The notes beneath the pieces were generated by a model. The model searched no databases. It saw only the letters and a list, made by a program, of their open reading frames with translations, and was not told the DNA's origin. From a virus (taxonomy: Duplodnaviria; Heunggongvirae; Uroviricota; Caudoviricetes), in the IMG/VR virus record IMGVR_UViG_2585427739_000003: a stretch of DNA of 28,490 nucleotides; one strand, written 5' to 3'. The position numbers and the translations under genes are program-made. Shown piece by piece: positions 20,434 to 21,766 of the stretch. Each line of letters starts with the position of its first letter. The stretch's first letter is position 1.

Positions 20434-21492
20434 TCATGCTTTCCACTTCAGGACACCCGAATTTCTCGCGTGCATTAAAAAACGAATCAGCAACAACAGC
20501 TGGCTGCCGTGTTTTTCTTCAAAATCTTTTACCCCGGCGTGCAGTTCGTTATGACATTTACGGCACAGCGGAATAACAAACAAATCATCAGCCTTTGTTC
20601 CCATACCTCCCAGGCCATGACCAATGATGTGATGCGGATCATCTGCCTGATTACCGCACGTCATGCATTTCTGCGTTTTTACCCAGCGCGTGTATACAGG
20701 CATCTCTTCCCGTTGTGGTTTCTGGCGCTGGAGATACTGAGCCGGAGACTCCGGATCAACGGCGATGCTTACTAACGTCTTTTCCTGGAGTGGGGGCTGT
20801 TGCTGGTGGACGTGAAGTGGCAGCGCAATATTTTTTGTGCGCTGCTTCAGTATGCTGGTGGCAGTCTGTTCTCCCGGTACGATGTCACTCTCACGGTATA
20901 CGGAGCGGATTTTTTCCACCGGTAATCCCAGTGAACGACACAATACAGACTCCGGAAGCACATCAGCCACCTGATTGCAGACCGCCCACCAGGATAATTC
21001 GGCCAGCGATAACTCCCTCTCCTGCGTACCGCTGATTGCGTGACGGATGACGTCAATCATCCATGCTGACAAGTTTTGGTGAGCAAGTTGCTCAAGTGAT
21101 TCTGAGGTCTGGTCACACAACTGGTTGTCGCAGTGCCAGCACAACACCATTGCGCCGGTACCATAACGGTGAATGACGGTTTCACTGTGGTGATAATCAC
21201 CGTGTGGCCACTGGCAGGATTTAATATGGCGCAACAGCCAGTCAGACAGTGCACCAGCGCCGCCAGCAGCACGAATCACACGCTCATTGCTGAAAAATGG
21301 CAGTAATGATTTATCCTCCGCCAGCGGCTGGCGAACGGCAGGGACGACTCCGGATGGCAGGCCGCACATGCTTTTCGGTTCCGGCTCCACCAGCACTCGA
21401 GGATTATGAAATATCTGTATGGATTCACGGCCCGGCTTAAGGACCACCAGCCCAAGCTCAGGCACCAGAACAGGTCTAAGTAATACCCGCAC
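20434..21492 (-). CDS. DUF968-like nin-region protein with a C-terminal HNH-like motif
   Basis: 352-aa ORF with a GTG start 1 nt after the upstream stop and a GGAGG ribosome-binding site. C-terminus has CMTCGNQADDPHHIIGHGLGG...PLCRKCHNELH. Confidence 0.55.
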   Translation of the reverse strand: MRVLLRPVLVPELGLVVLKPGRESIQIFHNPRVLVEPEPKSMCGLPSGVVPAVRQPLAEDKSLLPFFSNERVIRAAGGAGALSDWLLRHIKSCQWPHGDYHHSETVIHRYGTGAMVLCWHCDNQLCDQTSESLEQLAHQNLSAWMIDVIRHAISGTQERELSLAELSWWAVCNQVADVLPESVLCRSLGLPVEKIRSVYRESDIVPGEQTATSILKQRTKNIALPLHVHQQQPPLQEKTLVSIAVDPESPAQYLQRQKPQREEMPVYTRWVKTQKCMTCGNQADDPHHIIGHGLGGMGTKADDLFVIPLCRKCHNELHAGVKDFEEKHGSQLLLLIRFLMHARNSGVLKWKA

Positions 21493-21493
21493 G

Positions 21494-21766
21494 TTACCTC
21501 CAGATCCGTTGCTGGAAAGTGCGGGACGGACGTGGTGGGCGTTCGGAATAAGGCAGCCTGACAGAGATTATCCAGTGCCGATAGTCGAGACTGAGAGCTT
21601 TCTTAACCTCGAACCCGCGCCTGCGGTAAGAATGAATCAGCCATTCGGCCTGTTCTTCAGTACATGGTGGGTGTTGGTACCAGTCGGTTTTAAATGCGTG
21701 TGAACGCCGCTCATGCCGGATGGCAAGGTCGGTATCAGAATTGTGAAATTTGGTTTTGTGCGCCAT
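21494..21766 (-). CDS. Hypothetical nin-region protein, 90 aa
   Basis: ORF translationally coupled to the downstream DUF968-like gene; no family recognised. Confidence 0.45.
   Translation of the reverse strand: MAHKTKFHNSDTDLAIRHERRSHAFKTDWYQHPPCTEEQAEWLIHSYRRRGFEVKKALSLDYRHWIISVRLPYSERPPRPSRTFQQRIWR

Follow-up and report, generated by a model that had tools for sequence, protein, structure and literature searches.

A translationally coupled gene pair at the end of the early-right operon of a lambdoid prophage encodes a small basic protein and a YdfU-family (DUF968) protein with a predicted HNH nuclease domain

What do two adjacent genes of no established function, placed just upstream of rusA, contribute to the phage that carries them? 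The question is posed by 28,490 nucleotides (nt) of tailed-phage DNA (Caudoviricetes; IMG/VR record IMGVR_UViG_2585427739_000003; the whole stretch is called the window below), in which an initial annotation, made from the sequence alone, had described an open reading frame (ORF) for a 90-amino-acid (aa) protein, followed 1 nt later by a GTG-initiated ORF for a 352-aa protein, with a GGAGG ribosome-binding site inside the upstream gene. Both genes belong to the distal end of the early-right ('nin') operon in a lambdoid prophage, and the larger protein is a homologue of YdfU from the Qin prophage of Escherichia coli K-12. With a probability of roughly 0.55, we read YdfU as an HNH nickase or endonuclease, stabilised by zinc and made in the delayed-early phase, with a role in recombination-dependent replication of the phage, together with the co-translated RusA. 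The pair is laid out as follows:

21494-21766, minus strand: 90-aa ORF, ATG start
20434-21492, minus strand: 352-aa ORF for the YdfU-family (DUF968) protein, GTG start
21497-21501, minus strand: GGAGG Shine-Dalgarno sequence for the 352-aa ORF, within Trp-Arg codons of the 90-aa ORF

Both ORFs were reproduced on the minus strand at exactly the coordinates first proposed, and RefSeq places them at the same coordinates in an E. coli chromosome of 100% identity, where the products are named 'hypothetical protein' (90 aa, WP_023141427.1) and 'DUF968 domain-containing protein' (352 aa, WP_001296186.1). On the minus strand the junction reads ATC TGG AGG TAA C GTG CGG, with 1 nt between stop and start and 4 nt between GGAGG and GTG. 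The ribosome-binding site does sit in the final codons of the upstream ORF, and the placement just upstream of rusA holds to the nucleotide, the TGA stop of the 352-aa ORF abutting the rusA ATG (20433).

Is this arrangement conserved, and are both ORFs real? We surveyed the junction in 82 loci with both genes, comprising IMG/VR loci, three annotated records and the window itself. GGAGG is present in all 82, the small ORF stops 1 nt before ydfU in 81, and the junction TGGAGGTAA(C/T)GTG is found in 80; one locus has an ATG start and one an insertion between the genes. GTG serves as the ydfU start in 82 of 83 copies, and the reading frame is intact in all 76 distinct ydfU alleles. The ratio of nonsynonymous to synonymous substitution rates (dN/dS) of ydfU is 0.11 overall, 0.097 for residues 2-160 of the N-terminal domain and 0.094 for the HNH domain. 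For the 90-aa ORF it is 0.19 overall, 0.37 in codons 1-30 and 0.066 in codons 61-90 (dS 0.42). Because these low ratios accompany a dS of 0.42-0.70 over its three codon segments, selection acts on the small ORF at the protein level, and its conservation is not that of frozen DNA. The arrangement thus goes well beyond chance: both ORFs are genuine genes, and the junction's conservation across related loci bears out the proposed coupling: the pair is translationally coupled.

What kind of protein does the larger gene encode? Profile and structure searches, which the initial annotation had suggested as a check, return DUF968, HNHc_6 and the structures of HNH proteins. The match to Pfam DUF968 (PF06147) spans residues 160-344 at 213.1 bits (cutoff 27.8; E 3.7e-63), which turns the supposed DUF968 likeness into family membership. 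HNHc_6 is matched over residues 267-328 (31.9 bits, gathering cutoff 26.6; model positions 119-184 of 204), and PHROG 96, 'HNH endonuclease', over the full length (E 1e-162). There are 2104 relatives among 1.84 billion cluster representatives, with full-length homologues down to ~25% identity. An AlphaFold2 (AF2) model built on 30 diverse homologues (predicted local distance difference test score, pLDDT, 88.4) has an N-terminal domain, a disordered stretch and a C-terminal beta-beta-alpha domain, and its structural matches in BFVD are stand-alone DUF968 and Ref-like HNH proteins. The parts of the protein are:

20815-21492, minus strand: N-terminal domain, residues 1-226
21124-21216, minus strand: Cys/His site in the N-terminal domain, residues 93-123 (C93, H101, C118, C121, then D122-N123)
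20707-20814, minus strand: linker, residues 227-262, in which 227-242 are predicted to be disordered (AF2 pLDDT <50) and are followed by VDPExP...RPK
20503-20706, minus strand: C-terminal His-Me finger (HNH) domain, residues 263-330

The linker motif is conserved, with K258 invariant and P257 nearly so. The Cys/His cluster claimed at the C-terminus is present as C276-x2-C279 and C310-x2-C313-H314, and between and beyond these lie D285-P-H287-H288-I-I-G-H292-G-L-G-G, D303 and H318. The four cysteines (C276, C279, C310 and C313) are predicted zinc ligands, and H287/H288, D303, H314 and H318 are the candidate catalytic residues; D303 is conserved in 30 of 30 diverse homologues, H287/H288 in 26-27, and H314 and H318 in 26 each. 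Together with an HNHc_6 score above the cutoff, the predicted beta-beta-alpha-metal fold and the filled positions of the catalytic His, the Asp and the metal-binding His of the helix give substance to the His-Me finger likeness that had been proposed. Against the PDB, a single-sequence search returned only YbcO (E 0.4) and McrA (E 0.92) and the full-length profile nothing, so that the informative evidence at that level comes from the fold search and domain-level hhalign only. NCBIfam and the PADLOC defence models matched neither protein of the pair.

The family itself has been described before. Gram-positive DUF968 proteins were recognised as an Orf-like domain fused to HNH by Curtis et al. 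in 2014 (PMC4118853), and Jablonska et al. in 2017 placed DUF968, naming YdfU, with DUF1364/YbcO in group 7 of the His-Me fingers and proposed a role in recombination on the grounds that RusA and Q are neighbours and that fusions to Erf/Rad52 occur (PMC5714182). The pair thus belongs to a common family that had been catalogued before and for which a nuclease nature was predicted in 2017, and the initial annotation's reading of it was correct, though not new. YdfU is nevertheless still counted among the uncharacterised proteins in the 2024 y-ome review (PMC11551758), and the statement that neither protein has an established function still stands. Within the accessible part of a 2025 survey of lambdoid recombination modules, this nin-region gene is not mentioned (PMC12315714).

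Which characterised proteins are closest? Gp16 of phage phiNM1, described in January 2026, interacts with RecA of the host and nicks DNA, with cleavage enhanced by RecA; deletion of gp16 severely impairs phiNM1 DNA replication, and Gp16 arrests replication of the host (PMC12817073). Its C-terminal HNH domain is homologous to that of the window protein (hhalign 94%, E 1e-7, 80 columns; BLASTP 39% identity over 59 aa, E 1e-8), and Gp16 itself matches HNHc_6 (E 5e-117) and DUF968 (29.1 bits). Common to both is the pattern CxxC, H, D, Cxx(C/H)-H, x3, H. The six mutated Gp16 residues C148, C181, H184, H157, H185 and H189 correspond to C279, C310, C313, H287, H314 and H318, positions conserved in 23-26 of the 30 diverse homologues (at position 313, 23 have Cys or His). 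Furthermore, gp16 belongs to the early genes of its phage, in a DNA-metabolism region where rusA is found too. The two proteins differ in their N-terminal halves: Gp16 (223 aa) has a NinB/Orf-like domain, which was looked for and not found in the window protein, whereas the latter has an unrelated domain of 226 residues with a Cys/His site of its own. They also differ in host, Gram-positive (S. aureus) for Gp16 and enterobacterial for the window protein.

A second relative is P1 Ref (PDB 3PLW), a RecA-dependent HNH endonuclease (PMC4330346, PMC4713147). The window C-domain profile aligns with Ref at 74% (hhalign, E 3e-5), and the likeness is confined to the HNH core; the Ref N-terminus is basic, disordered and 76 residues long, whereas the N-domain of the window protein is folded. 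Pfam RecA_dep_nuc (PF16786) gave no match to the window protein at E <=0.01, nor did Pfam NinG (PF05766) or DUF1364 (PF07102). YbcO of DLP12 (DUF1364, PDB 3G27) has 96 aa and lacks the N-domain, and lambda Rap/NinG is an analogue in position and function only.

The N-terminal domain is lineage-specific and matches no Pfam family and no structure. It is predicted to be folded and slightly acidic (pI 6.5), and its Cys/His site is conserved in the 30 diverse homologues: C93, C118 and H/C121 are found in all 30, C/H101 in 29 and D122 in 28. In the AF2 model the site lies on a beta-hairpin (strands 105-110 and 113-118) and a helix (119-125), an arrangement that, like the consensus LCWHHDN, recalls the C-terminal finger with its PLCRxxHxELH. 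This is probably a second zinc site, and it may be a degenerate treble-clef/HNH duplicate. Residues 86-130 match the C-terminal HNH weakly (BLASTP E 0.35; hhalign E 0.08), the C-domain hidden Markov model (HMM) weakly matches the N-domains of four homologues (E 0.0014 to 0.07), and the N-domain weakly matches the Gp16 HNH (BLASTP E 0.1; hhalign E 0.16). All five comparisons share a single register, and each stays short of significance. Database proteins that combine the YdfU N-domain with tail-fibre, tail-tip, portal or capsid domains (P0127, P0145, P0161, P0175, P0176 and P0228) were considered as genuine fusions and rejected. In them the first 115-300 YdfU residues are joined to the other domains, with the DUF968 part broken off arbitrarily, and the sequences most likely arose as chimeric assemblies of prophage repeats or as read-through calls.

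How does the window gene compare with its K-12 namesake? Qin YdfU (P76162, b1560) is 79% identical over 348 residues and shares the two-domain architecture, the GTG start, the junction (TGGAGGTAACGTG) and the position upstream of Q. The differences are CRKHH in place of the window's CRKCH, and a neighbourhood in which rem is inserted upstream and no rusA stands between ydfU and Q, whereas the window has rusA. Directly before K-12 MG1655 ydfU there is an intact 92-aa homologue of the small ORF (~NC_000913.3 1644306-1644584; L003 3307-3585, minus strand), for which the K-12 reference record annotates no gene.

The 90-aa protein itself is very basic (pI 10.3). It matches PHROG 1212, a family of no known function, over residues 25-90 and all 66 profile positions (1-66; E 4.4e-36), and no Pfam model. 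In its predicted structure, residues 1-25 form a disordered N-terminus of variable sequence, ahead of a conserved core of ~65 aa with the order beta-alpha-beta-beta-alpha (pLDDT ~85), for which a fold search returned generic, uninformative ferredoxin-like matches only. The family is small, with 142 to 220 clusters, and among the 120 listed all named ones are from Escherichia/Shigella and their products are unnamed. A 67-aa homologue overlaps the start of a 48%-identical YdfU homologue at the junction TGGAGGGACTGATG, where the placement of the Shine-Dalgarno sequence in Trp-Arg codons is retained though the geometry differs. Among the contexts examined, the small gene is absent beside the homologues of SfIV (48%) and a Klebsiella phage (44%) and beside more distant ones. 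The 90-aa gene is a genuine coupled partner that accompanies the closer YdfU relatives only.

We also considered the 90-aa ORF as Rem, which in K-12 is the DicA antirepressor (PMC10448788) and resembles the ORF in size and in its place between hokD and ydfU, and rejected it, because BLASTP against K-12 Rem gave no alignment at E <=100 and K-12 holds both genes side by side. Some GenBank phage records label a homologue of the ORF 'rem' or 'toxin to Rem' (L002 6295-6573; LC5678xx); these labels are, to judge from the sequences, annotation errors that arose from proximity.

Does the company kept by ydfU point to a function? We examined eleven contexts, namely the window, K-12, six metagenomic or genomic loci, SfIV, a Klebsiella phage and P1, with homologues down to 25% identity. 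The YdfU homologue follows replication, antirepressor or KilA-N genes in all eleven, and in nine it stands directly or one gene upstream of the late-gene activator. These activators are unrelated to one another (lambda-type Q, a DUF1133-type protein, SfIV Q and P1 Lpa). In five of the eleven contexts, RusA lies close by.

The P1 homologue, PdcB, belongs to the family over its full length (24.5% identity, E 1e-22), and its gene (AF234172 88859-89902; L094 1405-2448) lies immediately upstream of the late activator gene lpa. The PdcB HNH has no equivalents of H287, H288, H314 and H318, while the zinc cysteines and the N-domain motif LCWHHDN are kept; the metagenomic homologues P0200, P0202 and P0232 share this pattern. 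P1 thus encodes Ref alongside a YdfU relative that is probably inactive. A viable pdcB::kan mutant of P1 has been reported (PMC10067587).

How is the pair expressed? The surrounding features are:

20071-20433, minus strand: rusA, Holliday-junction resolvase (Pfam RusA, E 1e-16; RefSeq)
19235-20056, minus strand: late-gene antiterminator Q, last gene of the block (Pfam Antiterm, E 6e-55; RefSeq)
21934-22089, minus strand: hokD, upstream of the pair (Pfam HOK_GEF, E 1e-23)
21848-21865, minus strand: intrinsic terminator, stem-loop AACCCGCTTCGGCGGGTT and then a T-run, between hokD and the 90-aa ORF (terminator scan)

The intergenic gaps in the series orf90, ydfU, rusA and Q are 1, 0 and 14 nt, and no minus-strand sigma-70-like promoter was found between the hokD terminator and the 90-aa ORF. 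Given a terminator upstream and no promoter of its own, the pair is probably expressed by read-through of antiterminated early transcription.

Several observations concern the flanks. A complete hok/sok module (21934-22258, minus strand), in which the sok antisense RNA accompanies hokD (Rfam RF01794, 106.7 bits), is inserted in the early-right operon just before the pair. RefSeq has a 59-aa plus-strand 'hypothetical protein', WP_001112736.1 (21713-21892), that runs across the hok terminator and the 5' end of the 90-aa ORF, and we take it to be a probably spurious annotation; a phage record has a shorter plus-strand ORF overlapping it, labelled 'mobile element protein'. A second small HNH endonuclease (14010-14360, minus strand; motifs DHIIPKAHGG and NLQSLCWPCH) adjoins the P27-family terminase small subunit and is the prophage's packaging-type HNH, distinct from the YdfU type. 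Downstream of Q lie two tRNA genes (18842-18915 and 19019-19091, minus strand; tRNA-Arg and tRNA-Ile in RefSeq), and the small RNA family STnc100 has a match at 18000-18142 (minus strand).

How might the products work? Under the reading we favour, early transcription that has been antiterminated would read through the hokD terminator into orf90-ydfU-rusA-Q. YdfU, its zinc-stabilised HNH domain carried behind a flexible linker, would nick or cleave duplex or branched DNA in a metal-dependent manner, the target being phage or host DNA during recombination-dependent replication. By analogy with phiNM1 Gp16 and P1 Ref, host RecA may stimulate YdfU. The products of this cleavage may feed the co-translated RusA resolvase, which would resolve branched intermediates, and the basic 90-aa protein is a candidate cofactor, DNA-binding adaptor or inhibitor.

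Several observations weigh against this proposal. The characterised relatives all lie outside the enterobacterial YdfU clade, and as the N-domain is unlike that of Gp16 or Ref, substrate choice and RecA dependence may not carry over. The PdcB-type sub-clade has lost the catalytic histidines and retained the N-domain, so the conserved function of the family may not be that of a nuclease, and P1 forms plaques without pdcB (PMC10695390). The Qin prophage of K-12 carries ydfU but lacks rusA, and the link to RusA is therefore not obligatory. As for the pair, the small partner is absent beside homologues of <=40% identity and some of 44-48%, and a spacing of 4 nt between the Shine-Dalgarno sequence and GTG is short.

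Could the nuclease instead be aimed at the host? YdfU could nick host or competitor DNA, shutting down host replication or excluding other elements, with the 90-aa protein as its inhibitor or immunity factor, which the coupled order of translation would supply before the nuclease. Overexpressed Gp16 causes growth arrest and nucleoid condensation in S. aureus and suppresses host replication (PMC12817073), and P1 Ref heightens the lethality of ciprofloxacin (PMC4713147). A small coupled gene before a nuclease gene is also the usual order of antitoxin and toxin or of immunity pairs, and a very strong Rho-dependent terminator reported upstream of K-12 ydfU has been discussed as silencing toxic prophage genes (PMC9160355). 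However, neither protein matches a PADLOC defence model, and ydfU is intact in thousands of lysogens. The coupling of the small gene is conserved in the E. coli clade and one 48%-identical homologue, and the partner is missing beside most YdfU homologues, which would not be expected of an obligatory immunity protein; moreover, the partner's pI of 10.3 is more in keeping with nucleic-acid binding than with nuclease inhibition by the usual kind of acidic DNA mimic. On balance we consider a host-directed or conflict role unlikely.

The position of ydfU, directly or one gene before the late activator in nearly every context although the activators are unrelated, would also fit a non-catalytic zinc-finger regulator that binds DNA or RNA, is tied to the late-expression switch and keeps the HNH fold for binding alone. 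The P1 PdcB sub-clade, with zinc cysteines and N-domain kept and catalytic histidines gone, points the same way, and one homologue, from Arsenophonus, carries the annotation of a phage transcriptional regulator (PMC5714182). Yet every catalytic residue is present in the window protein, whose HNH domain is under strong purifying selection (dN/dS 0.094), the closest characterised homologues are active nucleases, and a place at the end of the early operon is expected of any nin gene. We regard such a regulator as very unlikely. HNH proteins are also widespread in phage packaging machines (cited in PMC12817073), and YdfU might aid terminase in cos cleavage, as HK97 gp74 does; since a canonical small HNH already adjoins the terminase small subunit (14010-14360), this reading is excluded in practice, and we give it almost no credence.

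Returning to YdfU as a nuclease of phage recombination, a more specific and speculative version, which we consider unlikely, is that the clade forms a two-component, RecA-linked nick-and-resolve module. The N-domain, as an old duplicate of the HNH finger that was inactivated and became a second zinc treble clef, would recognise a DNA structure or the RecA filament, the C-terminal HNH would nick, the 90-aa protein would tune or gate the enzyme in the Escherichia lineage, and RusA, made from the same message, would resolve the product. Such a module would substitute for Orf or Rap in many enterobacterial lambdoid phages, and PdcB-type sub-clades would retain the recognition function alone.

How widespread is the locus? 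Of 5426 complete E. coli genomes, 4780 contain DNA that matches the 3-kb block, and 2340 of these cover at least 80% of its length. It is also present in isolated phages, including vB_EcoS-640R1, mEp460_ev081, PPompW phages and records of Stx2a (Shiga toxin)-converting phages. Homologues of ydfU are known in Stx-converting, Shigella serotype-converting, Klebsiella, Salmonella and Vibrio phages and in P1. In the Salmonella phage ST64B (AY055382 34545-35475) the YdfU homologue matches in two pieces, genes sb47 and sb48, which suggests a frameshifted or split ydfU-type gene.

Matches to the block thus occur in ~88% of complete E. coli genomes, yet ydfU remains a y-ome gene. The present analysis adds minor new observations, namely the small partner gene, the second Cys/His site and the catalytically degenerate P1-type members, and it corrects annotations: the 90-aa ORF is real, is missing from the K-12 reference and has wrongly been called 'rem' in phage records. 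The nearest characterised relatives of YdfU are two RecA-linked HNH nickases, P1 Ref and phiNM1 Gp16, and a RecA-assisted nickase encoded beside RusA in many enterobacterial temperate phages is therefore a directly testable proposition. If true, it would fill a gap in the recombination-dependent replication of phages that lack Orf or Rap.

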